DNA of 64,000 nucleotides from Ignisphaera sp. (GTDB lineage: Archaea; Thermoproteota; Thermoprotei_A; Sulfolobales; Ignisphaeraceae), in the NCBI GenBank assembly GCA_038889075.1, contig JAWAHS010000001.1, positions 128,001-192,000 of the forward strand. Reading direction: 5' to 3'. Positions within the stretch are counted from its first letter, which is position 1; each line of letters opens with the position of its first letter. The position numbers and the translations under genes were made by a program. Below are positions 1,373 through 56,014 of the stretch, piece by piece. The notes beneath the pieces were generated by a model. That model had not been told where the DNA came from, did no database searches, and worked only from the letters and a program-made list of their open reading frames with translations.

Positions 1373-1414
1373 TTGTAATAGTATATGGTAATATAGTAGA
1401 TAGGGAGACATTAA

Positions 1415-20883: not shown

Positions 20884-20887
20884 TTTG

Positions 20888-21541
20888 ATGCACATTCCTG
20901 ACGGCTTTTTAGATCCATATACAGCCATAGCCACGTATATAGTCTCTCTAGCTATAGTTGGATACGCTATTAAAAAAAGTAGTTTGTTAGATGAAATCGT
21001 ACTCGCTAGAGTTATTACATTATCAGCTTTCATCTTTGTTGCACAAATGATTGCATGGCCTGTACCTGGGGGGACCAGTCTGCATCTTGTTGGCGGTGCC
21101 TTGGCCGGCATCCTACTAGGTCCTTGGTTAGGGGCATTAGCTATGGCTATAGTATTGATCATTCAGTGTCTAGTTTTCCACGATGGTGGTATAACAGCTC
21201 TTGGAGCAAATATGCTAAACATGGCTATAGTATCTGTTTTTATGGGCTACGTATTGTATAGAACTGTAGTGAAGTTAATCCATAGTAATGTGAAATTTGT
21301 TCGATTTATAGCTGGATTAATAGCAGGCTGGATCAGTCTTGCCTTAGCAGGCACACTGGCAGGTCTAGAAATAGGTATCGCAGGCTACATCCTTAATAGA
21401 ATTAGCTATAGCTTAATGATAAGCTTACCCTCCATGGCTATGTGGCACACCATTCTAGGAGTTATCGAGGGCAGTATAACAGGATCAATTCTAAGTTATA
21501 TAGGATCCAAGTACCCTAAGGTGATAGAGGGAGAGAGGTAG
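20888..21541 (+). CDS. cbiM: Ni/Co ECF transporter S component CbiM/NikM
   Basis: Diagnostic N-terminus MHIPDGFL (start reassigned to ATG 20888), GTSLH, HDGGITALGAN. Confidence 0.92.
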   Translation: MHIPDGFLDPYTAIATYIVSLAIVGYAIKKSSLLDEIVLARVITLSAFIFVAQMIAWPVPGGTSLHLVGGALAGILLGPWLGALAMAIVLIIQCLVFHDGGITALGANMLNMAIVSVFMGYVLYRTVVKLIHSNVKFVRFIAGLIAGWISLALAGTLAGLEIGIAGYILNRISYSLMISLPSMAMWHTILGVIEGSITGSILSYIGSKYPKVIEGER

Positions 21542-21548
21542 AGAGATT

Positions 21549-21830
21549 ATGAGTAGGAGGCATATATATCTTTTAATAGCATTAATTGTTATAAGTCCTG
21601 TATTTGGTGTATATCTAGCTAATTTAGTTGGATACCACGAACCTCTAGATATTATTGCAGAAGAACTTGGATTAAGTGAAGCAGAATTTAACTGGACTCC
21701 ACTGAAAGACTACATGGTGCCAGGTCTACCAGAATGGCTAGGCTATATTTTAACTGGAATTATCGGAGTGAGTATAATGCTTCTACTTGAAGCTATAGTA
21801 AGACATTTCATCTTGAGGAAAAACAAATGA
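21549..21830 (+). CDS. NikN/PDGLE-like accessory membrane subunit
   Basis: Two TM helices; EPLD..AE and PLKDY motifs; between cbiM and cbiQ. Confidence 0.8.
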   Translation: MSRRHIYLLIALIVISPVFGVYLANLVGYHEPLDIIAEELGLSEAEFNWTPLKDYMVPGLPEWLGYILTGIIGVSIMLLLEAIVRHFILRKNK

Positions 21831-22591
21831 ACAACGATACGCTATTTAAAGTACTACATGAACTAGCAGATATGATTGAAGTTTTTTCGCATGGAATATG
21901 TAGATACAATTATGGACTAACAAGATATTTGAGTCCACTAACGGTATTCATAATATTTATTTCACTAACCATTATAGCTGCATACAGCTCTAATGATACG
22001 GCTAGAATCATCGTAATAGGAATATGCGCAGTTCAATTATTATTAATAGGTTCGCGAAGAATATTAACTAATATACTCAAGACATACATGTTCATAATAT
22101 TTTTGGCGGCATTTCTAGGACTTCCATCAATTTATCTATATACAGATAAGTATAGCGTAGTAGCATCTATGACTAGAACTATCTTTGTATCCCTTTCATC
22201 GTCTACACCTATGATAGTATTCTCTATTCTTGTTGGTTTAAGAGAAATAGGAGAAATTATATCAATTTTTTCAAGAGCATTAGGTAGAGCCATATACGCA
22301 TTCTCCACAATATTTCTAAAGATATCAAGACTGCAAATAGATATTCTATTAATGAGATTCTCTAGGAATATTATAAATAAAAGGGGATATATCTGGATAA
22401 TACTGACGTCTAGTATAGGCGATACACTGCTCCACTCGGAATACATTTCACAGAATATAGCCCTAGCTATGAAATCTAGAACCTTAGCATCAAAAAGCTT
22501 AAGAAATGAGTATACACTAAAGCTGCTAGACTACATTGTAATTATCGCGATACTGTCTATGGTGTTTATAGCTATCTTGGTGTTGAAATGA
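21827..22591 (+). CDS. cbiQ: ECF T component CbiQ/NikQ
   Basis: Hydrophobic; C-terminal AMKSR motif; operon position. Confidence 0.75.
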   Translation: MNNDTLFKVLHELADMIEVFSHGICRYNYGLTRYLSPLTVFIIFISLTIIAAYSSNDTARIIVIGICAVQLLLIGSRRILTNILKTYMFIIFLAAFLGLPSIYLYTDKYSVVASMTRTIFVSLSSSTPMIVFSILVGLREIGEIISIFSRALGRAIYAFSTIFLKISRLQIDILLMRFSRNIINKRGYIWIILTSSIGDTLLHSEYISQNIALAMKSRTLASKSLRNEYTLKLLDYIVIIAILSMVFIAILVLK

Positions 22592-23256
22592 TGGAGCTAC
22601 ATCTAAATAATGTATACTATAGATATCCCGGTGCTGACTACTACACACTAAAGGGTATAACTTATACATTTGTAAAAGGTAGGACCTATCTTATTACAGG
22701 ACCTAATGGAGCTGGCAAAACGACTCTTCTACTGGTACTATCAGGGCTTTTAAAGCCTGCTCAAGGCGATGTTCTTCTAGATGGGGAATCCATCTATGGG
22801 AAGGAACGGTATAGAAGGTTTTTTGGAGTTCTATTCCAGAATCCAGATCTCATGCTATTCAATCCTACAGTATACGATGAAGTAACATATTCAATTAAAC
22901 AAATATGCAAAGATTTTGAGAAAATAGATAAGGAGGTTAGTAAATGGCTGGAATTCTTTGAATTGGATAGAGATATATTAAATAGGCCAACCCATACCCT
23001 CAGCTATGGTTATAAAAAGGTGGTTGCATTAATATCCATACTAATCTATAGACCGAGGATATTAGTATTGGATGAGCCACATACAAATCTATCTAAGGAG
23101 TATTTTAGAAAGATTAAGAAGGTTGTTAAAATGAACGCTATAGACGGTGGTATAAATATTATAGCGAGTCACTCAATATCGGCATATAGAGATGTAGCTG
23201 ATTATCTAATTGTATTAAATAATGGTATGGTTAAAAAGATTACCAGTGCAAGATAA
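22588..23256 (+). CDS. cbiO: ECF ATPase CbiO/NikO
   Basis: GPNGAGKTT, FQNPD, LSYG, LDEP. Confidence 0.88.
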   Translation: MMELHLNNVYYRYPGADYYTLKGITYTFVKGRTYLITGPNGAGKTTLLLVLSGLLKPAQGDVLLDGESIYGKERYRRFFGVLFQNPDLMLFNPTVYDEVTYSIKQICKDFEKIDKEVSKWLEFFELDRDILNRPTHTLSYGYKKVVALISILIYRPRILVLDEPHTNLSKEYFRKIKKVVKMNAIDGGINIIASHSISAYRDVADYLIVLNNGMVKKITSAR

Positions 23257-39733: not shown

Positions 39734-40600
39734 CTATTCCTTTTTAACAGGCTTTTCAGCCAACTTCTCTTTAAACAGAACCTCACCCTTTGTACTATGT
39801 GGTGTTCTTACAACCGTATCTCCATACTTCTCAATCTCCCTAGCCTCATCTGCTAAGAGGGCAGCATACCTCATCATTTCATGCGCAGCTGCTACTATCG
39901 GGATGTACCTATCCGCTTCCTTGACTCTGAAGCATCCCTCAGTAGTTAAATCAGCGACATGCCGAGCAATTTCATAGGCTGCCATAGCTTTGACCTTTGC
40001 ATACGGATTCCTAAACTCAGCGTATCGTACAGCAGTTTCCTTGTCGACTACAATTTTGGGTAGCTGTATGTTCGTAATACCTTTTTTAATCTGATCGATT
40101 ACATTGTCGATCTCCCGTTGGAGGAGTCTGTAAACGCCTGTTATGGCCAGAACACGTATCAAATCGCCGTTGAAGAGCGTCATTTCAACGGGATCTAGAA
40201 ATTCTCTCCTTGCCCCAATCATTGAATCAGCTAAAACTATTATATAGCCAAACCCCTTAGCTTCAAGGTCCTTTACAATTTTGGATGTCGGTGCATCAGA
40301 TACTACAATGACATGTTTACCTTTCTCCTTAAGGGTTTCTCTAGCTTTTGTAGGTCCGGGGGTTGTTGCATTAGGGCTTACAACTAAATATATGTCGCAA
40401 TCTTCCCTAAAGCCTTTTTCAGCGAGTTCTAAACCATACTTTTCGTCATACATCTTGGCCCCTGTTGTGACAACTCTAACCTCAATGTCCATCCTATCAG
40501 CTCTTTCATCAAGGATGTACTCTAGGAGAGGTGCTGAAGCGATGCAACCAAGTTTTAGAATACATACCTTTACTGTTTTAGTTACCTCGGATTGAGACAT
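39734..40600 (-). CDS. mtd: F420-dependent methylene-H4MPT dehydrogenase
   Basis: KLGCI, LDERADR, SPN, DSMIGARREFLDP, AAHEM, RTPH. Confidence 0.96.
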   Translation of the reverse strand: MSQSEVTKTVKVCILKLGCIASAPLLEYILDERADRMDIEVRVVTTGAKMYDEKYGLELAEKGFREDCDIYLVVSPNATTPGPTKARETLKEKGKHVIVVSDAPTSKIVKDLEAKGFGYIIVLADSMIGARREFLDPVEMTLFNGDLIRVLAITGVYRLLQREIDNVIDQIKKGITNIQLPKIVVDKETAVRYAEFRNPYAKVKAMAAYEIARHVADLTTEGCFRVKEADRYIPIVAAAHEMMRYAALLADEAREIEKYGDTVVRTPHSTKGEVLFKEKLAEKPVKKE

Positions 40601-41681: not shown

Positions 41682-42440
41682 ATGAGGAGAATAGAGATCT
41701 ATGGGCTTAGAATAGACAAGGAAATTTTACCTGGGGATAATATAGCTGAAACGTTAATTATGGCAGCAGAAAGCAATGGTATTAGGATATTGGATGGTGA
41801 TATAATTGTCGTAAGTAGTAAGGTCATAGCTAAATCAGAGGGTCGAGTTGTTCCTCTGGATAGTGTGGAGCCGTCTGAGGAGGCTATGAGAATAGCTAAT
41901 ATAAGTAATAAGGATCCTAAACTAGTTGAATTGATATTGAGGGAATCAAAGGAAATTCTAAAAGTAGAGAGAAACAATATTATTGTGCTTACAAGACACG
42001 GTATTGTAGGAGCTAATGCAGGAATAGATCAGTCAAACACGGGAGGTACGGGAAAGGTTGTTTTGTTGCCTATAGATCCAGATGATTCAGCTAGGAAAAT
42101 TCGAAGATATATTAATGATAAGCTAGGAGTTAATGTAGCAGTAATAGTATCGGACACCTACGGCAGACCATTTAGAGAAGGACAAATCAATCTGGCAATA
42201 GGATTTGCAGGTATATGTCCGTACAGAGACTATAGGGGTCAAAGTGATAGGGATGGGTATATACTTAGAGTTAAGAATATTGCAATTGTGGATGAGATAG
42301 CAGCTGCCGCGGAGCTCGTTATGGGCCAATCAATAGAGAATACACCCTTTGCAATAGTTCGAGGAGTTGAATATGGTCGATGTGAGGAGGCCGGTTTTAA
42401 AGACATTGTAATGCCTAAAGAGCGGTGGCTGTTCAGATAA
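41682..42440 (+). CDS. cofE: F420-0:gamma-glutamyl ligase
   Basis: SKVIAKSEG, ANAGIDQSN, DTYGRPFREG, DEIAAAAELVMG. Confidence 0.93.
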   Translation: MRRIEIYGLRIDKEILPGDNIAETLIMAAESNGIRILDGDIIVVSSKVIAKSEGRVVPLDSVEPSEEAMRIANISNKDPKLVELILRESKEILKVERNNIIVLTRHGIVGANAGIDQSNTGGTGKVVLLPIDPDDSARKIRRYINDKLGVNVAVIVSDTYGRPFREGQINLAIGFAGICPYRDYRGQSDRDGYILRVKNIAIVDEIAAAAELVMGQSIENTPFAIVRGVEYGRCEEAGFKDIVMPKERWLFR

Positions 42441-42527: not shown

Positions 42528-43679
42528 TTGGCTTTGAGCAATACAAAGGTAACTAATGTATCGATGAACATAGATGTAGGTCTTTGTTCATTTTGTGGGG
42601 CATGTATAGCTATCTGTCCGACGCATGTAGGTTCAAAGAACCTTGATTACATTCCAGAGAAATCTGCCGATAAACCTGTTGTTAAGGATTTCCAAAAATG
42701 TGAGAAATGTAGACACACACTATGTATGCAGATATGTCCACAGTTAAACATACCGAGTAGCTCATTTAATACAAATAGTTACGGTTACCAAGGAGCATAC
42801 TATTCGAGGTCAAGGATGCAAGAAGTATTAAGTAGGGTACAGGATGGAGGGACGACCACAACACTTCTTCTTACAGCTCTAAGAGCAAAATTTGTGGACC
42901 ATGTATTAATCCTTAAAAAGGATGATGAATGGTATCCTAAACCTATGATTACTCAGAGTGAAAATGATGTTATAGAAGCAGGTGGTTCGAAATATGTTTT
43001 CTCTCCAATCCTTTCGGTTTTAGAAGAGGTTATAGATCGAATTGATATTGGTAAAGTAGCAGTTGTTGGTATTCCGTGTCAGTTGAGGGCTCTTGAAAAC
43101 ATTAGTAGACTTGGATTTAAACATAATAGTATCGCAGCTCTTAGAATCGGGTTATTCTGCATGCACAGTTTTTCAAGAGATAGAATGGAATTGATACTAA
43201 AGGAGCTTGGCGTACAATTCAAAGATGTGGTAAAAATGAATATAAAGAAAGGAAAGCTATGGTTTACACTAAGAGATGGAAGAATATTAGATTACCCATT
43301 AAGAAAAGCAGAGAAAGTACTCAGACCAGCATGTAGACAGTGTCCAGAGCTCTTTTCACCGTATGCCGATGTAAATGTGGGATCCATAGGAGCAGAGGAG
43401 AATTGGAATAGCCTATTGATTATGAATTCGAGAGGAAGAGAGCTTGTTGAAAAAGCGATTGACATGGGACTATTAGAGATTAAGCCTATGGACAATAGCG
43501 GTACTGAAACCATAGAAAAATATGTAAATAAAAAGGTTAGTGAAGCATTAAAGTATAGAGAGCTATATACTAAGGAGTTCCAAAATGTTCTACTCATAAC
43601 TCCTACAAAGAGAGGTAGAAAATTAAATGAGATCTTAGAACACAAGTCTGGAAGAAGTATCTATCTATCACCACTCTAG
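42528..43679 (+). CDS. FrhB/FdhB/FpoF-family F420-binding flavoprotein with N-terminal ferredoxin domain
   Basis: CSFCGACIAICP and CEKC..CMQICP; QDGG, GSKY, GIPCQ, GLFC, CRQC. Confidence 0.9.
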   Translation: MALSNTKVTNVSMNIDVGLCSFCGACIAICPTHVGSKNLDYIPEKSADKPVVKDFQKCEKCRHTLCMQICPQLNIPSSSFNTNSYGYQGAYYSRSRMQEVLSRVQDGGTTTTLLLTALRAKFVDHVLILKKDDEWYPKPMITQSENDVIEAGGSKYVFSPILSVLEEVIDRIDIGKVAVVGIPCQLRALENISRLGFKHNSIAALRIGLFCMHSFSRDRMELILKELGVQFKDVVKMNIKKGKLWFTLRDGRILDYPLRKAEKVLRPACRQCPELFSPYADVNVGSIGAEENWNSLLIMNSRGRELVEKAIDMGLLEIKPMDNSGTETIEKYVNKKVSEALKYRELYTKEFQNVLLITPTKRGRKLNEILEHKSGRSIYLSPL

Positions 43680-45058: not shown

Positions 45059-47206
45059 ATGAATGTCTGTGGACATCTAGAAGGTGATGCGCTATTGGCT
45101 AATGGAGGTGCAGATCTATTTAGACCTAGGAGCGTAGCGGTTATTGGAGCGTCTAGGGAACCAGGCAAGGTTGGATATGCAGTACTAAAAAATATTATTA
45201 ATAGTGGCTTTCAAGGAAAGATATATCCTATAAATCCTAAGGCAGAAGAAATACTGGGTATTAAGGCATACAAATCGGTGTTAGATGTTTCTGACGATAT
45301 AGATCTGGGTGTAATTGTTGTACCTGCTTCCATAGCTCTAGATGTTGCTGAAGAATGTGGTAAGAAGGGTATTAAGCATCTTGTTGTAATATCAGCTGGC
45401 TTTAAGGAGGTAGGGGGTGAGGGTATTGAGAGAGAGAAAAAGCTTGTGGATATAGCTAGAAAATATGGTATGAGGATGGTAGGGCCTAACTGCCTTGGTA
45501 TTATAGATACGTATACACCCATAAATGCATCATTCTCAGCTACTATGCCAAAAAGAGGTAGTATAGCTTTTATATCACAGAGTGGTGCGCTCCTTACCGC
45601 AATTCTTGACTGGAGTATTAAGAAGGGTATAGGTTTTTCAAGAATTGTAAGCTTAGGCAATAAAGCTGATTTGAACGAAGCTGACTTTATCCAGGCTGTT
45701 GAAGAGGATGTTAATACAAAAGTTGTTTTGCTATATTTAGAATCTATTGAAAATGGTAGAAAGCTTATAGAGGTAGCGGCTAGAGTTGGTAGGAAGAAGC
45801 CTATTGTTCTACTTAAGGGTGGTGTTACAGAGGCTGGTGCTAGAGCTGCTATGAGCCATACTGGAGCTATGACAAGTAGTACAACGATTCTCGAAGCTGG
45901 GCTTAAAAAGGCAGGTATCTTGATTGCTCGTAACCTTTCAGAGCTATTCGATTATGCTGTGGCGTTTAGTTATCAGCCAATACCTTTAAATAATAGAATT
46001 GCTGTAGTAACCAATGCCGGAGGACCGGGAGTTATAACATCGGATTTGATTGTGTCTAGGGGACTGAGGCTAGCATCATTCACTTCAGATACTATAAATA
46101 GTCTTAGGTCAAAGCTTCCGCCAGCAGCAGCTGTGTACAATCCTGTTGATGTATTAGGGGATGCTAGAGCTGATAGGTATAGCTATGCTATAGAGACCGT
46201 GTTGAACGATGATAACGTAGATGGTCTGATAGTTATACTCACGCCCCAAGCTATGACAGAGCCTGTAGAGACTGCAAAGGCTATGCTAAGACTGAATAAA
46301 AAGCATCCAAACAAGCCGATGGTGGGAGTATTTATAGGGGGTGATATGGTTGAGGAGGCATCTAGAATTCTTATGGAGAATGGTGTTCCAGTATATGATT
46401 TGCCTGAAAGGGGTGTTATTGCAATTTATGGTCTGTGTAGATATAGAGAAAGTCTAGAGTATTTGGAGAGAATTTTAGAGAGGGCAATATTCTTTGATGT
46501 TGATAAAGCTACGGCACTATCTATTATAGATAGCGTTAAGAGTGAAAATCGTAAAACATTGCTAGAATCGGAAGCTAAGGATTTAATAAAAAGCTATGGT
46601 ATTCCAGTAGCACCTACACGTCTTGCGAAAAATGAAGATGAGGCTGTTGAAATAGCTAGTAGGATCGGCTATCCAGTGGTACTGAAGATAGCTTCGCCAG
46701 ATATTATGCACAAGACAGATATAGGAGGTGTTGTAATGAATATAAATTCGGAGAAGGAAGTAAGAGAAGCCTTTAGAACAATAATTGACAGAGCATATAA
46801 ATATGCTCCAAGGGCACTGGTCTACGGAGTAGCAGTTCAGAAAATGGTTCCCAGAGGTAGGGAGGTAATAATTGGTGTATCTAAGGATCCATCATTTGGT
46901 CATGTTATAATGTTTGGTCTTGGCGGTATATATACAAATGTATTCAGAGATGTTTCATTCAGACTCGCCCCCCTCTCAGCGTATGAGGCTAGAGAGATGA
47001 TTAGTGAAACGAAAGCATATACGTTACTAAGGGGTTATAGAGGGGAGCCACCAGCAGATGTATCCTCAATAGTAAATATACTGTTAAGAGTTAGTCAATT
47101 GGTTACCGAGATACCCGATATAGTAGAAATGGATATTAACCCCCTCTTTGTATATAATGAAGGTATGGGTAGTCTAGCTATAGATGTAAAGGTGGTACTT
47201 TCATAG
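45059..47206 (+). CDS. ADP-forming acetyl-CoA synthetase, fused alpha-beta
   Basis: CoA-binding GPNCLG, SQSG, phospho-His SHTG, NAGG, ATP-grasp HKTDIGGV..DINP; probable start TTG 45095. Confidence 0.92.
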   Translation: MNVCGHLEGDALLANGGADLFRPRSVAVIGASREPGKVGYAVLKNIINSGFQGKIYPINPKAEEILGIKAYKSVLDVSDDIDLGVIVVPASIALDVAEECGKKGIKHLVVISAGFKEVGGEGIEREKKLVDIARKYGMRMVGPNCLGIIDTYTPINASFSATMPKRGSIAFISQSGALLTAILDWSIKKGIGFSRIVSLGNKADLNEADFIQAVEEDVNTKVVLLYLESIENGRKLIEVAARVGRKKPIVLLKGGVTEAGARAAMSHTGAMTSSTTILEAGLKKAGILIARNLSELFDYAVAFSYQPIPLNNRIAVVTNAGGPGVITSDLIVSRGLRLASFTSDTINSLRSKLPPAAAVYNPVDVLGDARADRYSYAIETVLNDDNVDGLIVILTPQAMTEPVETAKAMLRLNKKHPNKPMVGVFIGGDMVEEASRILMENGVPVYDLPERGVIAIYGLCRYRESLEYLERILERAIFFDVDKATALSIIDSVKSENRKTLLESEAKDLIKSYGIPVAPTRLAKNEDEAVEIASRIGYPVVLKIASPDIMHKTDIGGVVMNINSEKEVREAFRTIIDRAYKYAPRALVYGVAVQKMVPRGREVIIGVSKDPSFGHVIMFGLGGIYTNVFRDVSFRLAPLSAYEAREMISETKAYTLLRGYRGEPPADVSSIVNILLRVSQLVTEIPDIVEMDINPLFVYNEGMGSLAIDVKVVLS

Positions 47207-47216
47207 GTGGTGACTG

Positions 47217-48278
47217 ATGAGGGCTATATATGTAGTTGGTGAAAGAGGTAAAACTATTCTAATATATGGGCTACTAAGAAGATTCTCCCTAGAGGGGTTT
47301 AAGGTAGCATACTTTAAGCCCATATCAATGGCTAGAATGAGAGTTGCATCTGGTAAATATGTAGATACAGATGTTATTGCAATTAAGGATGCGCTAAACC
47401 TTGAGAATTCTATAGAGCATATTTCACCGATAGTAATATCTAGGAGCTATCTTGAATTAAGTGAGCGTGTAGATGAGGTTAAAAGCAGCATCTTGGAGGG
47501 TTTTAAGAAAGTTGTTGAGGGAAAAGATATAGTCATTATTGAAGGATACACACCAGCCGAGGCACTAACATCTATAAATTGTAACTTTGTAGAGCTTGCA
47601 AAGTTGTTTGGAGCAAAAATCGTACTGGTTATGGATTGTAGAAGTAGGATTGTGATCGATGAAATAATAGATAGGGCAATCCTATATAAATGCTTCATAG
47701 AGAAATCAGGCGGCGAACTGTATGGTGTTATACTCAATACTGTACCAATAGTGTACACCGAACGTGTTAAGAGCTTGATCGTGCCGTATCTAGAAAAGCT
47801 TGGGATTAGAGTACTTGGCGTAATTGAAGAAAGACCTAGACTTACGGCATTAACCGTAAAAGATATTGTGGAAGCGCTAAACGCTGAGGTATTGGAGGGT
47901 AAAGATAGGCTAAATTCTATGGTGGAGGATATTCTAATAGGTGCTATGAGCCCTGAGGCTGCTCTTAGATGGTTTAGAAGAGCTGTAAATGCAGCTATTG
48001 TAACAGGTGGTGATAGAACTGATTTAATTATGCAGGCACTTGAAACTCGACCAAGTGTTGTAATTTTAACCGGGAATCTATATCCCTCTATAGGTGTTTT
48101 GGTAAAGGCTAGAGAAACGGGTACACCAATATTACTAGTACCATATGATACATTTACAACAGTTGAGAGGCTTAAAGAGATGCAGGGAATAATCACCGCA
48201 GATTCATTAAAAGCTAGAGACAAGGATTTGATAACAATAATTGAAAAGGAGATTAAATGGAGAGAGCTACTGGCATAG
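47217..48278 (+). CDS. Phosphotransacetylase N-terminal-like (BioD-like + DRTGG) protein
   Basis: GKT, YFKP, IIEG, IGAM, VTGGDRTD; no Pta catalytic domain. Confidence 0.88.
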   Translation: MRAIYVVGERGKTILIYGLLRRFSLEGFKVAYFKPISMARMRVASGKYVDTDVIAIKDALNLENSIEHISPIVISRSYLELSERVDEVKSSILEGFKKVVEGKDIVIIEGYTPAEALTSINCNFVELAKLFGAKIVLVMDCRSRIVIDEIIDRAILYKCFIEKSGGELYGVILNTVPIVYTERVKSLIVPYLEKLGIRVLGVIEERPRLTALTVKDIVEALNAEVLEGKDRLNSMVEDILIGAMSPEAALRWFRRAVNAAIVTGGDRTDLIMQALETRPSVVILTGNLYPSIGVLVKARETGTPILLVPYDTFTTVERLKEMQGIITADSLKARDKDLITIIEKEIKWRELLA

Positions 48279-48283
48279 TAATT

Positions 48284-49177
48284 CTACATCTTTTTAAATC
48301 TCAACACTATAATGGGATAGTGCTTAACTCTTCTGAGAGATAGCCATGTGACAGATCTAAAATGTTCCATACCCAACGCTTTAACCATTTCAATAATGTT
48401 CCTTCCAATACCATAACCACGGAATTTCTCGCCTATACGTGCTAGCCTAAGTAATGTATAGAGATCGAGTTGAATACCTATATATGCTGTCGGGGTTGGA
48501 AATTTCTCAAATAAATTTCTAAATACCTTTCCAAGAATGTAGGCAGCAACACCGAGATCTATAATACCCTTTACCGTAGAGGGTCTTGTTGCTATTGCAA
48601 GAGATTTAATATTCTTTGGAACAAAACAGCTATCGGTATCAACAACGAGAATGTTTATGTTTGCGGATAGCTTACCCTCTATGGATTGTTTCATCTCTCT
48701 AATTATCTTAGCAACATTTTTAACTGGTATAGATACGTAGTAGTACGGAAGATTTGTAGCATCTATACCAGATTCAGAAAGAGGTTTTAAAAAATGCCGC
48801 ATTCCACCATAGTATAATGCTAATTTCTTGTGCTTTGCTAGAAGATCTATAGGGGTTTCACTTACAATTCTAATTGTATTTATATCTGTAAACAGTTTTC
48901 TGAGAAGATATCCCCAGAGAATTCTTGAGGTAAAGAATGTCATCATAGACGTCATAGGATCAACATTCACCGCATTCTCATCATAGATATTACCAAGAGC
49001 TATACTGAGGGCCTTGTCAGATATAACAATAATATCGTTATTTTTAATTGTATTACCATATACTTTTACAATCTCCTTAACAACATCTGTACCGGGCAGC
49101 CAATACTTACAAGGCTTTCTAATAACGCATAGCCTGTATCTGCTCCTTAGATTTAGATAATTCACGAATTGTTGCAC
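48284..49177 (-). CDS. Second, divergent CofE-like (F420 ligase family) protein
   Basis: YWLPG, DIIVISDKA, GIDATN, VVDTD. Confidence 0.7.
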   Translation of the reverse strand: MQQFVNYLNLRSRYRLCVIRKPCKYWLPGTDVVKEIVKVYGNTIKNNDIIVISDKALSIALGNIYDENAVNVDPMTSMMTFFTSRILWGYLLRKLFTDINTIRIVSETPIDLLAKHKKLALYYGGMRHFLKPLSESGIDATNLPYYYVSIPVKNVAKIIREMKQSIEGKLSANINILVVDTDSCFVPKNIKSLAIATRPSTVKGIIDLGVAAYILGKVFRNLFEKFPTPTAYIGIQLDLYTLLRLARIGEKFRGYGIGRNIIEMVKALGMEHFRSVTWLSLRRVKHYPIIVLRFKKM

Positions 49178-49198
49178 CTTCCACCTACTAAATGTAGT

Positions 49199-49939
49199 CT
49201 ATAGAAATGCATTTATGGTAATTGATAGGTATAGACATAATAGCAACATCATCGAGGACGCTACGACTATTATAGCATCTACGATCTTTATTGAAGCATC
49301 TATTGGATACTTAGGTATGCCATAAATGTAGGTAGCCTCTGTGATTTCTTTAGCATAATTTACAGAATGTAAAATCATTGGCAACAAGGCCTTGTATAGG
49401 TATCTTGAACCATACTTTAGCTTTACTGTTGATAGCGCCTCTGAATACACTATCATGATGTAGGGAATCTGTGAAAAAGCAATAGCTATAGAGGTTCCCA
49501 ATTCACCAAGGCCTATTTTTTCGAGAAACCATCGAATCTCTTCTATTCTAGTCCACTGGAATATCGATGCTATGGTCATAAACATAAGGGCTCCTTTCAA
49601 TGAGGCTATGGTTGCGCTAGTTATATCAACAACCCAGAAGTTGAAGAACTTAGCCAATAGATTTATAGCCAGACCTATTGCTATAAAGATTACAACAAAC
49701 TGCAGTCCTCCTAAAATCTTTCTAAAACTGCCACTCGTATGAAGAATGATTAGAATTGCAACTAATGCAGGTAACATGTAGAACAAATTGGATAGAGGTT
49801 TTAGTTTTAGAAACGAGCTGATGAGAAGGTATAGAAGTAGAATGGTAGGAATAGCTATCCTCGTGATAACACTTAGCCCCGTAGATGAAGTGTAGATAAA
49901 CGCATATGCTAGATTCTTCAACATTGATATGTTACCCAC
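49199..49939 (-). CDS. Membrane protein, probable ECF T component
   Basis: Multi-TM; WTRIEEIRWFLEKIG and C-terminal EATYIYG pattern; follows the S component. Confidence 0.6.
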   Translation of the reverse strand: MGNISMLKNLAYAFIYTSSTGLSVITRIAIPTILLLYLLISSFLKLKPLSNLFYMLPALVAILIILHTSGSFRKILGGLQFVVIFIAIGLAINLLAKFFNFWVVDITSATIASLKGALMFMTIASIFQWTRIEEIRWFLEKIGLGELGTSIAIAFSQIPYIMIVYSEALSTVKLKYGSRYLYKALLPMILHSVNYAKEITEATYIYGIPKYPIDASIKIVDAIIVVASSMMLLLCLYLSITINAFL

Positions 49940-50055
49940 AGCAGCATATTATGGTACGACACTTGTTGTAAAATAATGTAGTTTTATAAGGTATTTAGCT
50001 TTACTATTTGACCTAGCACCAAACTATTTAATTTTAACTTAAAATAGAGTATTGA

Positions 50056-50658
50056 TTAGGTAACGAAACCCATTTTGCTGAGTATTCTCACTATAGGTAT
50101 TGAGAATGTAGAGGTATATGCAGCTGAAATTGCATTGAATAGTACTATTAAGTGGAGAATAGGTATAATGATACTATGCAATGCTACAGTATACGATGGT
50201 GCTCCCCAGAATAGTGTTGCTATTAATGGTGTTATAAGGATGTTTAATACTACCATAGCTATAGACCTGCTTATTACTGCCACAAATATAAGTAGGAGAA
50301 ACATCACTTTAGCAGATATGCGAGGATACGCCCTACGGAGATACCTGTATGTATATACCATCGGTATATATGTTGAAGCCTCAGCTAAAACCTTCATAAG
50401 AGGGCTTAAAGGATTTGTAGCTCCCATTAGTAAGATTCCTAAATAGAATATGGGTAACCCTAGCGAAATTGAAAGTGGTAGATTTACAAATCCGGCTACT
50501 GCTAATGGTATTCCACAGAGATCAAATTTTAGGAACGGTGCTAATGGAAAGTCGATTTTCCCAAGATGAATAGGTATAGCAAGGCTAGATAGTATAACCA
50601 CTAGAGCTTTAGTTAAACTGAATGTTTTTGAAGATATTTTGGGGACTGGTGTAGTCAA
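50056..50658 (-). CDS. ECF transporter S component (RibU-like)
   Basis: FPLAPFLKFDLCGIP, helix pair RSIAMVVLN and FNAI; ~200 aa, 6 TM. Confidence 0.8.
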   Translation of the reverse strand: MTTPVPKISSKTFSLTKALVVILSSLAIPIHLGKIDFPLAPFLKFDLCGIPLAVAGFVNLPLSISLGLPIFYLGILLMGATNPLSPLMKVLAEASTYIPMVYTYRYLRRAYPRISAKVMFLLLIFVAVISRSIAMVVLNILITPLIATLFWGAPSYTVALHSIIIPILHLIVLFNAISAAYTSTFSIPIVRILSKMGFVT

Positions 50659-50662
50659 TCTA

Positions 50663-51634
50663 TCATACCGCCCTTCTATAGCTCTTCACTATATTTAAAA
50701 CTTTTTGTGCTAATATCACCTTAGCATCTATGCTATCCATAGCTATATTAGCTAGTGTCACATCTACTCCTATTTCTCCTTTTATCCTATGTGCTAAGTG
50801 TTCATCGGAAGAGTCTATAACGATGTCTGATATGATATCAGAATACATCTCAGCAATACTATATGCCGTTGGTTCGTAGCCTAAATACTTCAATAGAACA
50901 TGGGCTACCCCAGTAAAGGCTCTACCATTCCTAATTGGGGAAACTGCCACTATTGGTACCCCTGCTTCACGTTTCTTTCTAATACATTCTCTTATACCTC
51001 TAGTGCTAAGTATTGGATTTATGCTTAGGAATGGGTTGCTAGGTCCTATTACAATTATATCAGCGTTAGTTATAGCATTTAGAACTTCAGGTGGGGCCTT
51101 AGCTTCACCTATACCTCTGTATTCGATCTTGAAGACTTTTACCTTTTCAGGGTTCTGTTTAGCTGCATATTTAACGAGATATTCCTGAATGTGAAGGTCA
51201 CCTAGATCTGTATATATGTGTGTTTCTACATGTTCATCGCTCATAGGTAGAATTACCCCTTTAGCTTTAAGGACTTTAGAAATATACCTTGTAATCTCTG
51301 TTAATCTAAATCCTTGTCTAAGCATGTGGGTTCTAACTATGTGTATAGCTAGATCTCTATCTCCTAATACAAACCAGTCTAAAACGTTAAATCTCCTAAT
51401 CATACTGTATGTATTGAAAGTATCATTAATAATGCCCCAATACCTGCCAGTATCAAGTAATCCACAGGCAAGGTATGTAGCAGAATCGACGTCAGGTGCT
51501 ATGTAAAGGTCTAAAAGCCATATATTGTCAGCAGTGTTAACCACTACAGTTATCGTTTCTGGATCAATCAGTTCCCTTAATCCTTCAAAAAGCTTTAGAC
51601 CACCCTGGCCACCAGTAAGCAGGACAATATTCAC
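50663..51634 (-). CDS. cofD: 2-phospho-L-lactate transferase
   Basis: GGQGGLK, VNTAD, PDVD, LGDRD, PMSD, GPSNP. Confidence 0.95.
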   Translation of the reverse strand: MNIVLLTGGQGGLKLFEGLRELIDPETITVVVNTADNIWLLDLYIAPDVDSATYLACGLLDTGRYWGIINDTFNTYSMIRRFNVLDWFVLGDRDLAIHIVRTHMLRQGFRLTEITRYISKVLKAKGVILPMSDEHVETHIYTDLGDLHIQEYLVKYAAKQNPEKVKVFKIEYRGIGEAKAPPEVLNAITNADIIVIGPSNPFLSINPILSTRGIRECIRKKREAGVPIVAVSPIRNGRAFTGVAHVLLKYLGYEPTAYSIAEMYSDIISDIVIDSSDEHLAHRIKGEIGVDVTLANIAMDSIDAKVILAQKVLNIVKSYRRAV

Positions 51635-51647
51635 GTATGCGTCACCA

Positions 51648-52322
51648 CTATTTGTGTCTAATTAGGCTAGTCCCATACAGGGACAGAATTCTACATAGTT
51701 CCTTTCCTCCGTATATGCTACATAGCTGTTTGGCTATTATGAGATCCTCAGCTGTATCTATATCTATAGATGTACCTAGAGTGCTATATACATTTACCCT
51801 TATTGTTTTTTGGAGAGCTCTAGCTAGATGTTTTTGAAAGCTATTTTTACCGTGCATAAGCTCTATCATGAGTGGATACCTTTGTAACATTATATTTGTA
51901 CCGCCATCAATTGAAGGCGTGAGAACTATATCAAATCCATCTCTATAGAATCCTACGATGGTATTCACATCTTCACTTGAGACAAACGGAGCATCTGCTA
52001 CCCCAAAAATTACTGCATCGATTTTATATGGTATTGTTTCAAGGGCTTTGAGATAGGCCTCAATCTGTCCATTGCCACCATCATAAACTATATCTATGGT
52101 GAAATCTCGAACAGTTTCTCTTATACTTGGATCTGGGGTCACTAAGATTGTCTTATCAACATATCTCGAGCATGCATAGACGTGAATGACGTCTCTTAGC
52201 ATAGCTTTTACAATCTCTATACGAATAGATTTTTCTATTTCTTTAAGCCTGGATTTCGCTCTATTAAGATCTTTAATCGGTACCAGGGCAACAATCATTA
52301 TTAGCAACCATAGGATCTGCAT
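51648..52322 (-). CDS. cofC: 2-phospho-L-lactate/PEP guanylyltransferase
   Basis: VPIK..AKSRL, DGGTN, SFQKH, DIDT.EDL. Confidence 0.92.
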   Translation of the reverse strand: MQILWLLIMIVALVPIKDLNRAKSRLKEIEKSIRIEIVKAMLRDVIHVYACSRYVDKTILVTPDPSIRETVRDFTIDIVYDGGNGQIEAYLKALETIPYKIDAVIFGVADAPFVSSEDVNTIVGFYRDGFDIVLTPSIDGGTNIMLQRYPLMIELMHGKNSFQKHLARALQKTIRVNVYSTLGTSIDIDTAEDLIIAKQLCSIYGGKELCRILSLYGTSLIRHK

Positions 52323-52339
52323 CTAGTATGTGTTTCTAA

Positions 52340-52990
52340 CTATGGTATTATAAGCGTGTAAGGTGAGCAGCAGGAGGTTTTTTCTAATAAGCAATAGAGA
52401 GAATCTACATAGTGCGCATTTACAATAGCTGTAGGTATGCGATGTCTTCTGATTAATATAGGCGTATATTCATCAATAACATTTTGATTTAATGGAACGC
52501 TATCCGCTTTAATGGTTCTAGCTATACTGCCATTGACAATTATACCACTTACAAGTTTTGTTAATATGGCTATATCAGCCTTAAGTAGATGTGCTATGAA
52601 TACGGTGATAGCATCGCTTGTTACAGACCACGAGTGGGGTAGCTCATCATATTTTTTAATGATATTGAAGGGCATTATTAGGGGAAGGCGATTTCTAGAC
52701 CATACATCGTACACCCTCTCTAGGGTATCCGCACTCTCTATATAGCTACTTCTTGAGCTAATGAATGCACCATATACTTCCATGGACTTTATCGCCATCC
52801 AGTGTGCTGTCGAATCGTCGAAGTTTAGTCTCCTTTGAAGATCGCGAATCACATCTGCAAATATACTACCCCCTGGTACTATAGCTATTCTTATATCATT
52901 GTTCTGAAGCTTTGAGAGGGTATTGAGTAGCGTATCGAGAGTATCGGTACTCCATAGAAGATTGCCGCTAATTTTAACTACGGTTTTCAT
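52340..52990 (-). CDS. mfnE: Amino-acid-kinase family, MfnE-like
   Basis: VVKISG, PGGSIFAD, AHWMAI, PHSWSVTSD. Confidence 0.82.
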   Translation of the reverse strand: MKTVVKISGNLLWSTDTLDTLLNTLSKLQNNDIRIAIVPGGSIFADVIRDLQRRLNFDDSTAHWMAIKSMEVYGAFISSRSSYIESADTLERVYDVWSRNRLPLIMPFNIIKKYDELPHSWSVTSDAITVFIAHLLKADIAILTKLVSGIIVNGSIARTIKADSVPLNQNVIDEYTPILIRRHRIPTAIVNAHYVDSLYCLLEKTSCCSPYTLIIP

Positions 52991-52992
52991 AG

Positions 52993-54066
52993 TTACTTAG
53001 ACACCCTTTGGCGCATCATCATAGTAGCAGCATATGCTGGAAATACAGCTGATATCTGTGGTTCTATAAGATTATCTATATCTACAATTACTTTAAAGCC
53101 AGCTCTTTTTGCTGCTTCACTTGCTAGAAACTTTCCTACACCGGCTACAACTACCTTAAAAATCGATGGATCTATATTAAGGGAAGCTATATAGCTTCTA
53201 ATTTGCATTAAAGCACCAGACACCATATGTATCTGCATCTCGTAGATGTATCTAGCCATCTCCCTAATTTCAAACTCGTTCAATATCATCATATCGCCAC
53301 ACACTACTCGAGCCAACCTCTCCATAGCCTCCTCTAAAGAGGTACCTCTGCCATCAGCCGTCTCTGTTGTATACTCGCTACTCGATATGTTTCTTAGTAT
53401 GAGGTGGACATCGCCTACCAATGCGAATCTCTCATTGCATATTCTAGCGTAGAGTCCCTTTATGGGAACCCTATCAACAATGCCTACAACATTACTTCTT
53501 AGAATGCCGGTATATACAAGCTCGCCAACGATAAGTTTCTCGGTATCTGTAAATCCTCTTACACAAGCTTTTCCGCTGATTATAGGAATTAGAGTAGTCG
53601 TTGTACTACCTATATCAACAAATATGCTATTTTCAATACCCCATCTATACGAGTATCTCTCCAAAAACCATGCAGAAGCAGCCCAGTTTGCTCCTGCAAC
53701 TTTCAGATAGTTCTCAATAGCCTCATCACTAGATACTAGCTTCATATCACTAGAGACAAACTTTATATCGATCGCATCGCTAAATGCATCCATAGATGAT
53801 CTGACTATGTGTTCAACACCTTCTCTTTTAACTCTATAGACATCACTTAGTTCAGCTGTCATGCATATAGCTATATAGTACTGTTCACTATCCGTAATAA
53901 TACTTCTTCTAATCTCTCTAAGCTTTTCCTCTAAACCTTTTCTACCACGGATCCATATAGGGAAATATTCTCGCAGAACTGATAGCACCTTTACCTCATT
54001 ATCGTATGCGTCTATTTTCACAGCCTTTATATTAGCACCTCCTATATCGAGACCAACAATAATCAA
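52993..54066 (-). CDS. mfnF: Hydantoinase-A-like methanofuran synthesis protein
   Basis: DIGGANIK, MTAELSD, ANW, DIGSTTT, ELVYTG, TADG. Confidence 0.88.
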   Translation of the reverse strand: MIIVGLDIGGANIKAVKIDAYDNEVKVLSVLREYFPIWIRGRKGLEEKLREIRRSIITDSEQYYIAICMTAELSDVYRVKREGVEHIVRSSMDAFSDAIDIKFVSSDMKLVSSDEAIENYLKVAGANWAASAWFLERYSYRWGIENSIFVDIGSTTTTLIPIISGKACVRGFTDTEKLIVGELVYTGILRSNVVGIVDRVPIKGLYARICNERFALVGDVHLILRNISSSEYTTETADGRGTSLEEAMERLARVVCGDMMILNEFEIREMARYIYEMQIHMVSGALMQIRSYIASLNIDPSIFKVVVAGVGKFLASEAAKRAGFKVIVDIDNLIEPQISAVFPAYAATMMMRQRVSK

Positions 54067-54143
54067 GGTGCAGCACCTACGGCTAATTAGGTGAGCAACG
54101 CTATATATTAGCTATTGTAAACAGTCTCTAGGGCTGGCTATAT

Positions 54144-54830
54144 ATGATTGAAAAGGTTAAGGTTATACCTGTAGTGGATGTAATGAATGGTTTAGCAGTA
54201 CATGCTATTGAGGGAAAGAGGGATATGTATAGACCTATAGAGGGTAGCATTATATCATCTTCTCCTGATCCCAGGGATGTCCTCCAGGGGCTGCATAGGT
54301 ACGGATTTAGAGAAGTCTATATAGCTGATCTAGACGCTATTATGGGTAGGGGAGATAATACATGGGTTCTGGACTACGCTATTAGATTGGGATTCAAAGT
54401 TATAGCGGATATTGGCAGAGGAGGTCTCGAAAAAACAGATTCAAACAGTATTAGATATGTTATAGGGACGGAATACATTTCGTACCCATATGAGGTTAAA
54501 AAACTTAGCAATAGAATTGTAAGCCTGGACTGCCATAATTTAAATACAAAGTTTTCAGATAGATATGTCGAGGCTTCGCTAGCAGCAGAACTACTTATGA
54601 GAATTGGTATAACTGAATTGATAGTTCTAGACCTTACACGCGTGGGATCTATGAGGGGTCCAAATCTCCAACTTATAAGTAGTGTTAGGGAAGTTTATAG
54701 AGGCACGATTTATGTAGGTGGCGGTATCAGGGGAAGGAGTGATATTGAGGAATTGAAGAGATTTGATGTGGATGGCGTTCTACTGGCTACAGCAATACAC
54801 AAGGGAATAATACTCAATGTATATCTCTAA
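54144..54830 (+). CDS. HisA/HisF-related protein (H4MPT/MFR-cluster type)
   Basis: IPVVDV..AVHA..G.R..YRP, YIADLDAI, LDLTRVGS..GP, GGGIR. Confidence 0.82.
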   Translation: MIEKVKVIPVVDVMNGLAVHAIEGKRDMYRPIEGSIISSSPDPRDVLQGLHRYGFREVYIADLDAIMGRGDNTWVLDYAIRLGFKVIADIGRGGLEKTDSNSIRYVIGTEYISYPYEVKKLSNRIVSLDCHNLNTKFSDRYVEASLAAELLMRIGITELIVLDLTRVGSMRGPNLQLISSVREVYRGTIYVGGGIRGRSDIEELKRFDVDGVLLATAIHKGIILNVYL

Positions 54831-54881
54831 CTTCAGGATAGATTTTTAATTTATTTACTGTATATATTTTTGGTGGAAAAC

Positions 54882-55076
54882 GTGTGTGAATCCATAGCCT
54901 ATATAAGGGAGGGCAACTCTGAAAAACTCTATGCACGAGATATAGCTACGTTGGTAATTGAAGAGAATAAGATAGTACTCATAGATATTGCTGGCAATAC
55001 ATACACCTTAACAGATGCCGTATTAGAGTACGTAGACTTTGTTGGTCATAGAATCATTTTAAGAAAAACCGATTGA
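54882..55076 (+). CDS. cooT: CooT-family nickel-binding protein
   Basis: GTG start behind GGTGG gives MCESIAY (Cys2), DIAG, C-terminal HRIIL. Confidence 0.8.
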   Translation: MCESIAYIREGNSEKLYARDIATLVIEENKIVLIDIAGNTYTLTDAVLEYVDFVGHRIILRKTD

Positions 55077-55159
55077 GATCAATGTAGAATTGAGGATGAC
55101 TGTGTTGATATATTAAGAACTAATTAATTAGTATTGGAGAAAAAATTATTTTTACCTAT

Positions 55160-55876
55160 TTATTTTGCAGGTTTGAATATATACTCATAGAGAGTCGCTC
55201 CTATTATACCCCCTATTATAGGTCCTATTAGATATATCCATACCTTGGATAGAGGCAGTAGATCACCAGCAATAGCTGCAGCTATTGCCGGTCCAAGAGA
55301 TCTTGCAAAATTCATGCTTGCACCTGTTAACGGTCCTCCAATCCATATATCGCAGGCTACTATCATCCCTATTGAAAACCCTGCCCAGCCTGTCGGTGCC
55401 CGTTTATCTACGGCTACACCCATTATTACAAATAGTAGCCATAATGTGAGGATGATCTCTATAACTACGGCTGCACCATCTCCTACTCCAGTACCTGGAA
55501 GTGTAGAACCAAAGCGAACAGCCTTACCTGCAACTGGGAAGAATCCGTAGAGGCAGAGACCTGCTATAATGGAACCTATAATCTGAGCAGCTATATAGGG
55601 TGCTACAAGTTTAGCAGGAAGTCTTCCAATAGCAGCAAGGGCGACTGTTACAGAAGGGTTTATATGTGTACCCGAGATGTGACCCAGGGTATAGATCATT
55701 ATCATTACAATAAAGCCGAATGTAGCACCTATACCAAATAGTGCAGCAGGGCCGCCACCAAGTATCGAGATTAGGGTTATAACTGATGCAGGTCCGAATA
55801 GTGTTAGAGCCCATGTGCCAAATATCTCTGCTATAAACATCTGTAGCAATGTAGGCTGGGTCTTTTGACTAGCCAA
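55160..55876 (-). CDS. MIP/aquaporin family channel with NPS/NFA motifs
   Basis: AEIFGT, HISGTHINPSVT, GASMNFARSLGP, WIY..GP. Confidence 0.92.
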   Translation of the reverse strand: MASQKTQPTLLQMFIAEIFGTWALTLFGPASVITLISILGGGPAALFGIGATFGFIVMIMIYTLGHISGTHINPSVTVALAAIGRLPAKLVAPYIAAQIIGSIIAGLCLYGFFPVAGKAVRFGSTLPGTGVGDGAAVVIEIILTLWLLFVIMGVAVDKRAPTGWAGFSIGMIVACDIWIGGPLTGASMNFARSLGPAIAAAIAGDLLPLSKVWIYLIGPIIGGIIGATLYEYIFKPAK

Positions 55877-56014
55877 CCATTTTCACCCACAGTACTTAAT
55901 CCGGTTATGGGGTATATAAGCTTTTCTCTATATATAGAAAGGGAATTCATGGCCTATGCAAGCTATTGTTGAAAAAGAATTTAAAAATACGGATTATTTT
56001 TATTTTGTTTTAAT

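Follow-up and report, generated by a model that had tools for sequence, protein, structure and literature searches.

RibU is the riboflavin-binding S component of energy-coupling factor (ECF) transporters, and riboflavin-auxotrophic archaea often have ribU, as stated in the available text of Rodionova et al. (2017, PMC5397151). A flavin system of Listeria monocytogenes, EetB/FmnA, uses shared EcfA/A' ATPases that are encoded elsewhere (PMC9973259, available passages). The deazaflavin cofactor F420 is usually treated as made in full or lacking. A 2021 review states that TACK archaea carry 'a full complement' of F420 genes; a word search of the review returned neither 'salvage' nor 'scaveng', and its available passages name no importer (PMC8498797). 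No natural importer of F420 or of its precursor 7,8-didemethyl-8-hydroxy-5-deazariboflavin (FO) was found in the full-text literature, a search that covered neither subscription papers nor supplements, in agreement with the first-pass annotation of the DNA treated here, which knew of no described transporter with such specificity. This DNA is a stretch of 64,000 nucleotides from Ignisphaera sp. (assembly GCA_038889075.1, contig JAWAHS010000001.1, positions 128,001 to 192,000 of the forward strand), called the window below and numbered from its own first letter. Directly behind the F420 biosynthesis genes cofC and cofD, it encodes a putative S component of the RibU family, S_A, followed by a putative coupling subunit, T_A. 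We infer FO as the substrate, import as the direction of transport and the sharing of an ATPase, and put the probability that S_A and T_A form an FO importer of the RibU family at about one half.

Probable dependence on external FO

The genome that contains the window (1.95 Mb, 25 contigs) is 99.58% complete. CofG and CofH (TIGR03550, TIGR03551) have no match at E ≤ 0.001 in the window, as the first-pass annotation had reported of FO synthase, or anywhere else in the genome. Among 41 related genomes, 17 of them in the genus, none exceeds either cut-off, and a match at E ≤ 1e-5 is absent from all 17. The hidden Markov model search for cofG and cofH that had been proposed as a check has thus come back empty for the near-complete genome and for the genus. 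CofH matches below the cut-off in four other families presumably stem from related radical-SAM enzymes.

RibH/RibC (PF00885) and RibB (PF00926), each of which is detected in 14 of 14 control genomes, are not found in the genome, nor is GTP cyclohydrolase III, and the best score for RibD_C is 15.8 bits, under its cut-off. The archaeal riboflavin kinase RibK is present. Because the riboflavin pathway is not found in the genome, riboflavin import is required. The riboflavin pathway also supplies the pyrimidine precursor of FO. Since CofG/CofH and the riboflavin pathway are missing and CofC, CofD, CofE and Mtd are kept, FO must come from outside. Import of finished F420 would leave CofC and CofD useless, and therefore FO uptake is a logical requirement. 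The deduction is a tight one, and the conclusion that the organism needs external FO, having no known route to make it, is well supported. The earlier proposal that FO is imported and then finished to F420 holds as regards this need, given the missing enzymes and the presence of Mtd and a true CofE; the part that assigns FO specificity to the S component is circumstantial.

S_A and T_A as putative members of an ECF module

As single sequences, neither S_A nor T_A matches any Pfam or NCBIfam model even at E = 10, and S_A alone matches neither PF12822 nor PF07155 at this threshold. A word-indexed search recovered 4 relatives of S_A and an exhaustive HMMER search over 1.84 billion representatives recovered 31 at E ≤ 1e-3, the closest named ones coming from Ignisphaera metagenome-assembled genomes. 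Profile A1, built from 29 S_A-family sequences and searched against 177,635 PDB sequences, matches solely RibU (Staphylococcus aureus 3p5n, E 2.2e-24; Thermotoga maritima 5kbw, 1.9e-17, and 5kbw/5kc0, ~1e-17), and the next row is noise at E 0.11. Individually, 11 of the 29 family members match PF12822. Consistently, the AlphaFold2 model of S_A, with a predicted local distance difference test score (pLDDT) of 89.1 and a predicted template-modelling score (pTM) of 0.82, finds RibU chains at all of Foldseek ranks 1 to 5, with template-modelling (TM) scores TMt of 0.81–0.82 and root-mean-square deviations of 3.0–3.3 Å, as against TMt of 0.45–0.63 for the other S components ThiT, FolT, BioY and PanT. 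The family profile and the predicted fold support the assignment of S_A to the RibU family of ECF S components, so that the earlier label 'RibU-like' is upheld.

T_A has no match to PF02361 (EcfT/CbiQ) at E = 10. The T-family profile A3 retrieves no EcfT chain from the PDB, where its rows are only chance-level matches to G-protein-coupled receptors (E 0.1), and hhalign of T_A against two canonical CbiQ proteins gives a probability of 47% and E 2e-4. When the AlphaFold2 model of T_A (pLDDT 85) is searched with Foldseek, the 11 entries listed to rank 12 are all EcfT/CbiQ chains, with a best E of 1.3e-3 and TMq up to 0.64, and the rows after them fall below TM 0.2. The Atlas model reaches TM 0.72 to an EcfT cluster. 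EcfT has two coupling helices with Ala-Arg-Gly motifs; in the CbiQ-aligned region of the T family, K175-x-G177 and A202-x-Y204-x-x-G207 are invariant. With moderate confidence, T_A is predicted to be an EcfT-like subunit, and the label 'T-like' of the first-pass annotation agrees with the Foldseek and Atlas matches.

The window carries another ECF system of the order CbiM-CbiN-(254-amino-acid open reading frame)-CbiO, for cobalt or nickel, at 20855-23256. T subunits are generally divergent in this lineage, because the open reading frame in the CbiQ position (21827-22591) also has no Pfam or NCBIfam match.

Duplication of the operon and loss of the ATPase gene

High-identity orthologues of S_A (69–100%) occur in 4 of the 41 related genomes (G000, G009, G012 and G014), all in the genus, and each of the four contains a second copy with 43–44% identity to S_A, referred to as paralogue B. 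Ten of the other 13 genus genomes have one S copy, at 34–38% identity to S_A. CofD, CofE and Mtd exceed their cut-offs in exactly the same 4 of 41 genomes. S_A stands directly after cofD in all four, with gaps of -4 to +11 nt; the conserved proximity of this S-component clade to cofD in genomes lacking cofG and cofH, which had been named as a check, is therefore found in every CofD-positive genome among the 41 relatives.

Three named Ignisphaera loci (L036, L037 and L039), which may come from the same species and are not independent, keep the order mfnF-like, mfnE-like, cofC, cofD, S, T and CofE-like. In L039, the locus of a sister species, a fused protein of 486 amino acids with two ABC_tran domains is encoded between S and T. 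In the window, L036 and L037, there is only a spacer of 112–157 nt at this place and no ATPase gene, and a search of these three spacers for an ATPase remnant gave chance-level matches only (best E 0.04–0.27). In the window's genome, paralogue B belongs to a complete S-AA'-T operon at C2:294835-297581, which is followed by Fae. The single-copy genes of other Thermoproteota lie in the same three-gene operon: a double ABC_tran gene comes right after S in 11 of the 19 Pfam-scanned loci, and the five loci without a Pfam scan have open reading frames of the same sizes.

Maximum-likelihood analyses of S (34 rows), T (15 rows) and ATPase (12 rows) sequences agree in placing every A clade as the sister of the B copies from the same genomes, with support of 92/75 for S, 83/83 for T and an SH-aLRT of 93 for the ATPase. 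The stem branch is 1.11 substitutions per site for S_A and 0.57 for S_B. The whole S-AA'-T operon was thus duplicated in a lineage-specific manner, and one copy lies beside cofD. Because L039 is basal within S_A, the ATPase gene was lost once. The AA' protein of operon B on contig C2 (474 amino acids), which is 46–48% identical to the L039 ATPase, would be the obvious ATPase donor.

EetB/FmnA, likewise an S and T pair, sets a precedent for a module that has no ATPase genes of its own; in this system the S subunit determines the direction of transport (PMC9973259, available passages). If S_A and T_A worked in the same manner, they would export a flavin or deazaflavin. We consider this very improbable: the host cannot make the flavin or FO head groups, which is hard to reconcile with export, and the sister species retains the full operon of the importer type.

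In all four species, S_A and T_A have intact reading frames. Pairwise Nei-Gojobori dN/dS values are 0.13–0.20 for S_A, 0.08–0.23 for T_A and 0.11–0.21 for CofD, with CofC, S_B and T_B alike, all of them rough because dS is 1–2 or more and thus near saturation. The low values of S_A and T_A include pairs in which both members are without the ATPase gene. S_A and T_A are under purifying selection. A decaying, functionless remnant left after the loss of the ATPase would agree with the missing ATPase gene in three of the four CofD-linked loci and with the little or no contig cover over S and T in one RNA library, but intact frames in four species and dN/dS of 0.08–0.23, as low as in CofD even for the ATPase-less pairs, make such decay scarcely credible.

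Paralogue B and riboflavin import

A RibU-like gene occurs in 17 of the 41 relatives and in none of the other 24, and PF00885 is found in 3 of the 17 as against 18 of the 24. Paralogue B is probably the housekeeping riboflavin importer, because its counterpart is single-copy in riboflavin-auxotrophic relatives, in which PF00885 is mostly missing. A PF02441 flavoprotein gene follows the S-AA'-T operon in 3 of the 19 Pfam-scanned loci.

S_A and T_A could also be a second importer of riboflavin or flavin mononucleotide (FMN) with unchanged specificity, which would lie beside cofD by chance or as part of a shared flavin regulon, with FO entering through paralogue B, another carrier or diffusion. 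S_A is a RibU by profile and fold in an organism that is auxotrophic for riboflavin, and work in yeast suggests that FO and riboflavin may share transporters (PMC8859854, available passages). However, the riboflavin role is already taken by paralogue B, the orthologue of the relatives' single gene, and S_A is present only where CofD, CofE and Mtd occur. Furthermore, S_A has a long stem branch and has replaced near-invariant residues, including the DPxG motif. A second riboflavin importer is therefore unlikely.

Several genes around the paralogue-B operon belong to other pathways. Fae (237 bits) directly follows the operon at G000:C2:293138-294577 (L061:4139-5578), with a nitroreductase-family gene of 297 amino acids beside it, and the same pair comes after the operon in L040. 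At a distance of 2 kb from the operon, genes for a URO-D/MtaA-like protein and a B12-binding corrinoid protein (G000:C2:299686-301457; L061:10687-12458) hint at a corrinoid methyltransferase system feeding the tetrahydromethanopterin (H4MPT) pathway.

Remodelled substrate loops of S_A

In an alignment of 8 clade-A, 4 clade-B and 22 other archaeal family members, 19 positions are invariant in clade A with a residue never seen outside it, and 10 of them are near-invariant elsewhere. L30I and P36D in loop 1 are present in 8/8 clade-A sequences at sites near-invariant in the other 26. The changes D82N and G85S turn DPxG, which by profile alignment is also the motif of S. aureus and T. maritima RibU, into NPLS at the loop between helices 3 and 4. 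Near-invariant sites are further changed by W146I, L147A, T163I, an inserted P166 and P169H, and residues restricted to clade A include a new W-G-A-P at 151–154 and W/Y160L, a position occupied by W, Y or F in the other 26. S_A thus departs from RibU-family conservation both at DPxG and at the aromatic residues of transmembrane helix 5 (TM5) and loop 5 (L5). By alignment and in the S_A model, the positions fall in L1, L3 and L5, namely loop 1, the helix 3/4 loop and the stretch of TM5, short helix, loop 5 and TM6.

FO and riboflavin differ at C5, C7 and C8, and part of the difference is therefore at the benzenoid ring. A simulation of S. aureus RibU reports that the ribityl chain is held by L1, with L5' as a lid on the hydrophobic dimethylbenzene ring (PMC3868957, available passages), and a key aromatic residue of Lactococcus lactis RibU is at the end of helix 3 (PMC9354243, available passages). 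Rebuilt and selection-frozen ring-covering loops in a duplicated riboflavin receptor are what one would expect of a switch to FO.

Heavily remodelled binding loops would also suit some other molecule, such as F420-0, F420 or a methanopterin or methanofuran precursor of the pterin or furan type. The operon starts with MfnF-like and MfnE-like genes, the window has MfnB, MfnD-like, MptN-like, Ftr, Mch and Fwd genes, and the family-invariant K89 and R131 (N and M/A in bacterial RibU) could accommodate an anionic ligand. However, K89 and R131 are common to the B clade and all single-copy members and are not peculiar to S_A, import of F420 would make CofC and CofD pointless, and S_A is 4 nt from cofD, whose enzyme uses FO. 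Such a cargo is therefore improbable.

FO and riboflavin genes across the phylum

A sample of 401 genomes of the phylum in the GTDB sense, the window's genome included, was searched with four models; the genomes are related, and the counts are accordingly reported without a statistical test. CofD is present in 174 of the 401 (170 over the cut-off), CofG in 78, RibB in 138 and the RibU-like profile in 209. The CofG calls are cleanly separated, with the weakest match at 2.6e-95 and a gap to the threshold. The 97 genomes with CofD and without CofG include 1 with RibB and 79 with a RibU-like gene (48 with one copy and 31 with two or more). In the 77 genomes that have both CofD and CofG, RibB is found in 67 and a RibU-like gene in only 8. 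The 226 genomes with neither CofD nor CofG have RibB in 70 cases and a RibU-like gene in 121 (two or more copies in 18). The pattern is plain: the losses of FO synthase and of riboflavin synthesis go together in this phylum, with the F420 tail enzymes retained and a transporter of the RibU family present nearly always. Some CofD-containing families are almost or entirely without CofG and RibB. CofD, CofG and RibB are found in 16/17, 1/17 and 1/17 genomes of family f22, in 16/25, 0/25 and 0/25 of f24, and in 4/4, 0/4 and 0/4 of f26. The counts point to a widespread FO auxotrophy in which synthesis of the F420 tail is retained.

The neighbourhoods of the 30 best cofD loci were inspected with 1.5-kb flanks. 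In 4 of the 30 other loci, which belong to two other families and in each case to a CofG-less genome, an ECF S-like gene is located at most 1.5 kb from cofD; the family profile recognised three of these genes (E 1e-29 to 1e-36), and only PF12822 the fourth. We tentatively suggest, at a little less than even odds, that FO salvage by RibU-family ECF carriers is common in Thermoproteota, that over half of the sampled CofD-encoding genomes, having lost FO synthase and the riboflavin pathway alike, rebuild F420 from imported FO, and that one Ignisphaera clade has a dedicated FO importer wired into cofC-cofD.

The same survey yielded three further observations. A PF00881 nitroreductase-family gene (~160–213 amino acids) adjoins cofD in 19 of the 30 loci (L075-L102), mostly directly upstream and on the same strand; we take it that this gene may be a stand-alone counterpart of the C-terminal dehydro-F420-0 reductase domain of FbiB. 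In family f37, which has CofD and no CofG, two RibU-like genes lie adjacent on opposite strands and away from cofD (G206:C2:23435-25097 and G309:C37:59112-60777), which makes this a further lineage in which RibU-like genes are duplicated. Finally, 10 of the 77 genomes with CofD and CofG (e.g. G042, G066 and G151) have no RibB, and they may keep only the pyrimidine branch that is needed for FO.

Proposed mechanism and points that weigh against it

In the proposed mechanism, the S-AA'-T riboflavin importer operon was duplicated in the common ancestor of a few Ignisphaera-like species, and one copy came to lie directly behind cofC-cofD. S_A would then have become a high-affinity binding subunit for FO, which topples in the membrane against T_A and delivers FO to CofD. 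The ATPase gene of this copy is lost here, and the fused AA' ATPase encoded in the paralogous operon on contig C2 would power the module.

A number of observations weigh against a dedicated FO importer. The linkage within the genus represents one evolutionary event, in one clade of four species, and not four independent ones. The locus is without its own ATPase gene, and the spacer between S and T has a promoter-like, AT-rich sequence, so that S and T are possibly not co-transcribed. In the RNA library, contigs are thin over S (depth 0.25–2.1 at 49873-50806) and none covers 48472-49872, although such contigs can show neither absence nor expression level. The operon also contains genes of the methanofuran/H4MPT type, and the precursor of another cofactor is therefore possible as cargo. 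The pocket argument is made at the level of loops in an alignment. In the phylum, 18 of the 97 genomes with CofD and without CofG have no family-A1 gene.

The other loci with a RibU-like gene next to cofD point in the same direction. In G230, G401 and G089 the family is represented by this gene alone, and PF00885 is missing; as the only copy in riboflavin auxotrophs, it must carry riboflavin too. That a sole RibU-like gene which necessarily carries riboflavin is found beside cofD and an FMN-type nitroreductase gene in three other lineages also favours a second riboflavin importer of unchanged specificity. The substitutions of clade A were sought in the cofD-adjacent RibU-like genes of G230, G401, G089 and G059 and are not shared. 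Adjacency to cofD is thus by itself not proof of FO specificity, because sole-copy cofD-adjacent genes also carry riboflavin, and an unspecialised RibU may already be carrying FO. The adjacency supports a link to flavin or deazaflavin uptake, and it is the Ignisphaera clade with its two paralogues that carries the argument for a dedicated FO carrier.

Organization of the locus and neighbouring genes

Open reading frame calling of the window gives seven consecutive minus-strand frames from 48284 to 54066 (Table 1). Together with the family scans, they confirm the run of MfnF-like, MfnE-like, cofC, cofD, S, T and CofE-like genes that the first-pass annotation had described. The gap of 4 nt that it had given between cofD and the S component is exact, with the cofD stop codon at 50663-50665 and the TTG start of S_A at 50656-50658. 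Its labels mfnF and mfnE hold in part: the first frame belongs to TIGR03123 (308 against 244.1 bits) and stays below the MfnF equivalog NF040623 (235.4 against 520 bits), and the second is not a member of the MfnE equivalog NF040622 (124.6 against 300 bits). The true CofE elsewhere in the window and the 116-nt spacer between S and T had been missed. Downstream of the CofE-like gene, the named Ignisphaera loci have a DRTGG protein and an ADP-forming acyl-CoA synthetase on the opposite strand. An Rfam scan of 47000-56000 returned zero matches at E ≤ 0.1.

Table 1 Features of the cofC-cofD region and related genes in the window
Feature	Position	Strand	Basis
TIGR03123 'probable H4MPT-linked C1 transfer pathway protein' (MfnF-like)	52993-54066	-	308 bits (cut-off 244.1)
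MfnE-like amino-acid-kinase-family protein	52340-52990	-	PF00696, 50.8 bits
CofC, guanylyltransferase	51648-52322	-	TIGR03552, 111.9 bits (cut-off 105); PF01983, 90.7 bits
CofD, 2-phospho-L-lactate transferase, FO as substrate	50663-51634	-	TIGR01819, 282 bits (cut-off 257.45); PF01933, 151 bits
S_A, putative RibU-family ECF S component of 200 amino acids, CofD-linked paralogue, candidate FO-binding subunit	50056-50658	-	profile and predicted fold
S-T spacer, 116 nt, AT-rich	49940-50055	-	site of the 486-amino-acid fused double ABC ATPase gene in the sister species
T_A, putative divergent EcfT-like transmembrane coupling subunit of 246 amino acids	49199-49939	-	predicted fold
CofE-like PF01996 paralogue, 297 amino acids	48284-49177	-	PF01996, weak, 40.5 bits (cut-off 25)
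True CofE, F420-0:gamma-glutamyl ligase	41682-42440	+	TIGR01916, 258.8 bits (cut-off 180.65)
Mtd, F420-dependent methylene-H4MPT dehydrogenase, cofactor consumer	39734-40600	-	NF002162, 388.9 bits (cut-off 297)
FrhB/FpoF-like F420-interacting subunit, adjoins CofE	42528-43679	+	family level only

The CofE-like gene at the end of the run fails the CofE equivalog TIGR01916 (18.1 against 180.65 bits), and over 163 residues its identity to the true CofE is 22%. In 14 of the 17 genomes of the genus, CofD-less ones included, it occurs as one copy. In the seven same-genus CofD-less loci inspected, it adjoins orthologues of the MptN-like and MfnD-like genes, with a HisA/F-related gene additionally beside it in two of the seven; an eighth locus, from another family, has none of these three neighbours. 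A role as the glutamyl ligase of the F420 pathway is rejected, given that a true CofE exists and that the CofE-like gene occurs in CofD-less genomes. It is a resident gene of the genus beside which the cof-ECF block came to lie, and its use as evidence for a link to F420 falls away. A function as glutamyl ligase in the making of another cofactor is more likely for this gene than one in F420 synthesis. As an observation in its own right, this PF01996 family of ~290 amino acids is kept across the genus beside the MptN-like and MfnD-like ATP-grasp ligases, even in the absence of CofD, CofE and Mtd.

The window forms an island of one-carbon and cofactor genes, with Mch, FwdC, FwdA, FwdB/D, Mtd, Ftr, CofE, an FrhB/FpoF-like protein, MfnB, MptN-like and MfnD-like, and it also encodes the CbiMNQO cobalt ECF system and a BtuFCD-like ABC system. 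The FrhB/FpoF-like protein is below the cut-offs of NF006807 (206.8 against 269 bits) and TIGR03289 (183.6 against 331.5 bits). According to the available text of an opinion article, some Ignisphaera genomes carry H4MPT/methanofuran genes and others do not (PMC5020050). DNA near-identical to the window is present in hot-spring metagenomes from 11 coded studies.

Contigs from one RNA library, 95–99+% identical to the window, cover Ftr, the stretch of CofE, FrhB-like and 4Fe4S genes, MfnB, the acyl-CoA synthetase and DRTGG, as well as parts of cofD and of cofC/mfnE-like; contigs of this kind neither prove transcription nor rank genes. One RNA contig of run X20 has a head-to-tail join across the MfnB gene, from 44937 back 771 bases to 44167, and an assembly artefact is possible.

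Implications and comparison with known systems

If S_A binds FO, it would be the first natural deazaflavin transporter, and it would explain the source of the cofactor in many archaea that have only cofC, cofD and cofE. The capacity for F420 would then be read differently from genomes, since tail enzymes and a transporter would suffice. At the level of communities, FO would be traded between producers and users in hot springs, and for biotechnology the carrier would offer a route to feed FO into F420-making cells.

The only transporters found to have a link with F420-type molecules, through annotation or genomic context, are of another type. The 'putative F420-0 ABC transporter' of NCBIfam (TIGR03868/03869/03873) is a hypothetical classical binding-protein ABC system and not an ECF one, and the same holds for a putative ABC transporter that adjoins the 3PG-F420 cluster of P. 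rhizoxinica and for which export has been proposed (PMC8498797, available passages). The window has a BtuF/BtuC/BtuD-like ABC importer at 251-3296, which is far below the cut-offs of the F420-0 transporter models (44/129/202 against 392/437/372 bits), even though the best NCBIfam match of its BtuD-like ATPase is to the hypothetical F420-0 ABC transporter (202 against 372 bits); it is probably a corrinoid or siderophore system.

EetB/FmnA of L. monocytogenes resembles S_A and T_A in being an S and T pair without ATPase genes that handles a cargo of the flavin family and coexists with RibU-EcfT. It differs in that it exports flavin adenine dinucleotide for extracytosolic flavinylation and belongs to Firmicutes (PMC9973259, available passages), whereas the host here is a head-group auxotroph, for which import is expected, and the operon of the sister species still includes an ATPase gene. 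The archaeal ribU described by Rodionova et al. (2017) corresponds well to paralogue B and to the relatives' single-copy genes; this work concerns riboflavin only, and the available parts of its text mention no cof-linked second paralogue, FO or Ignisphaera (PMC5397151). The closest known proteins are the RibU proteins of S. aureus (3P5N), T. maritima (5KBW) and L. lactis, which have the same size and six-helix fold and share Asn139 and F174-N175 with S_A. Unlike these proteins, to which it is ~21–22% identical, S_A has NPLS in place of DPxG and replaced aromatic residues in the TM5-L5-TM6 region, lies in an F420 operon of a host without FO synthase, and would have FO as its substrate.

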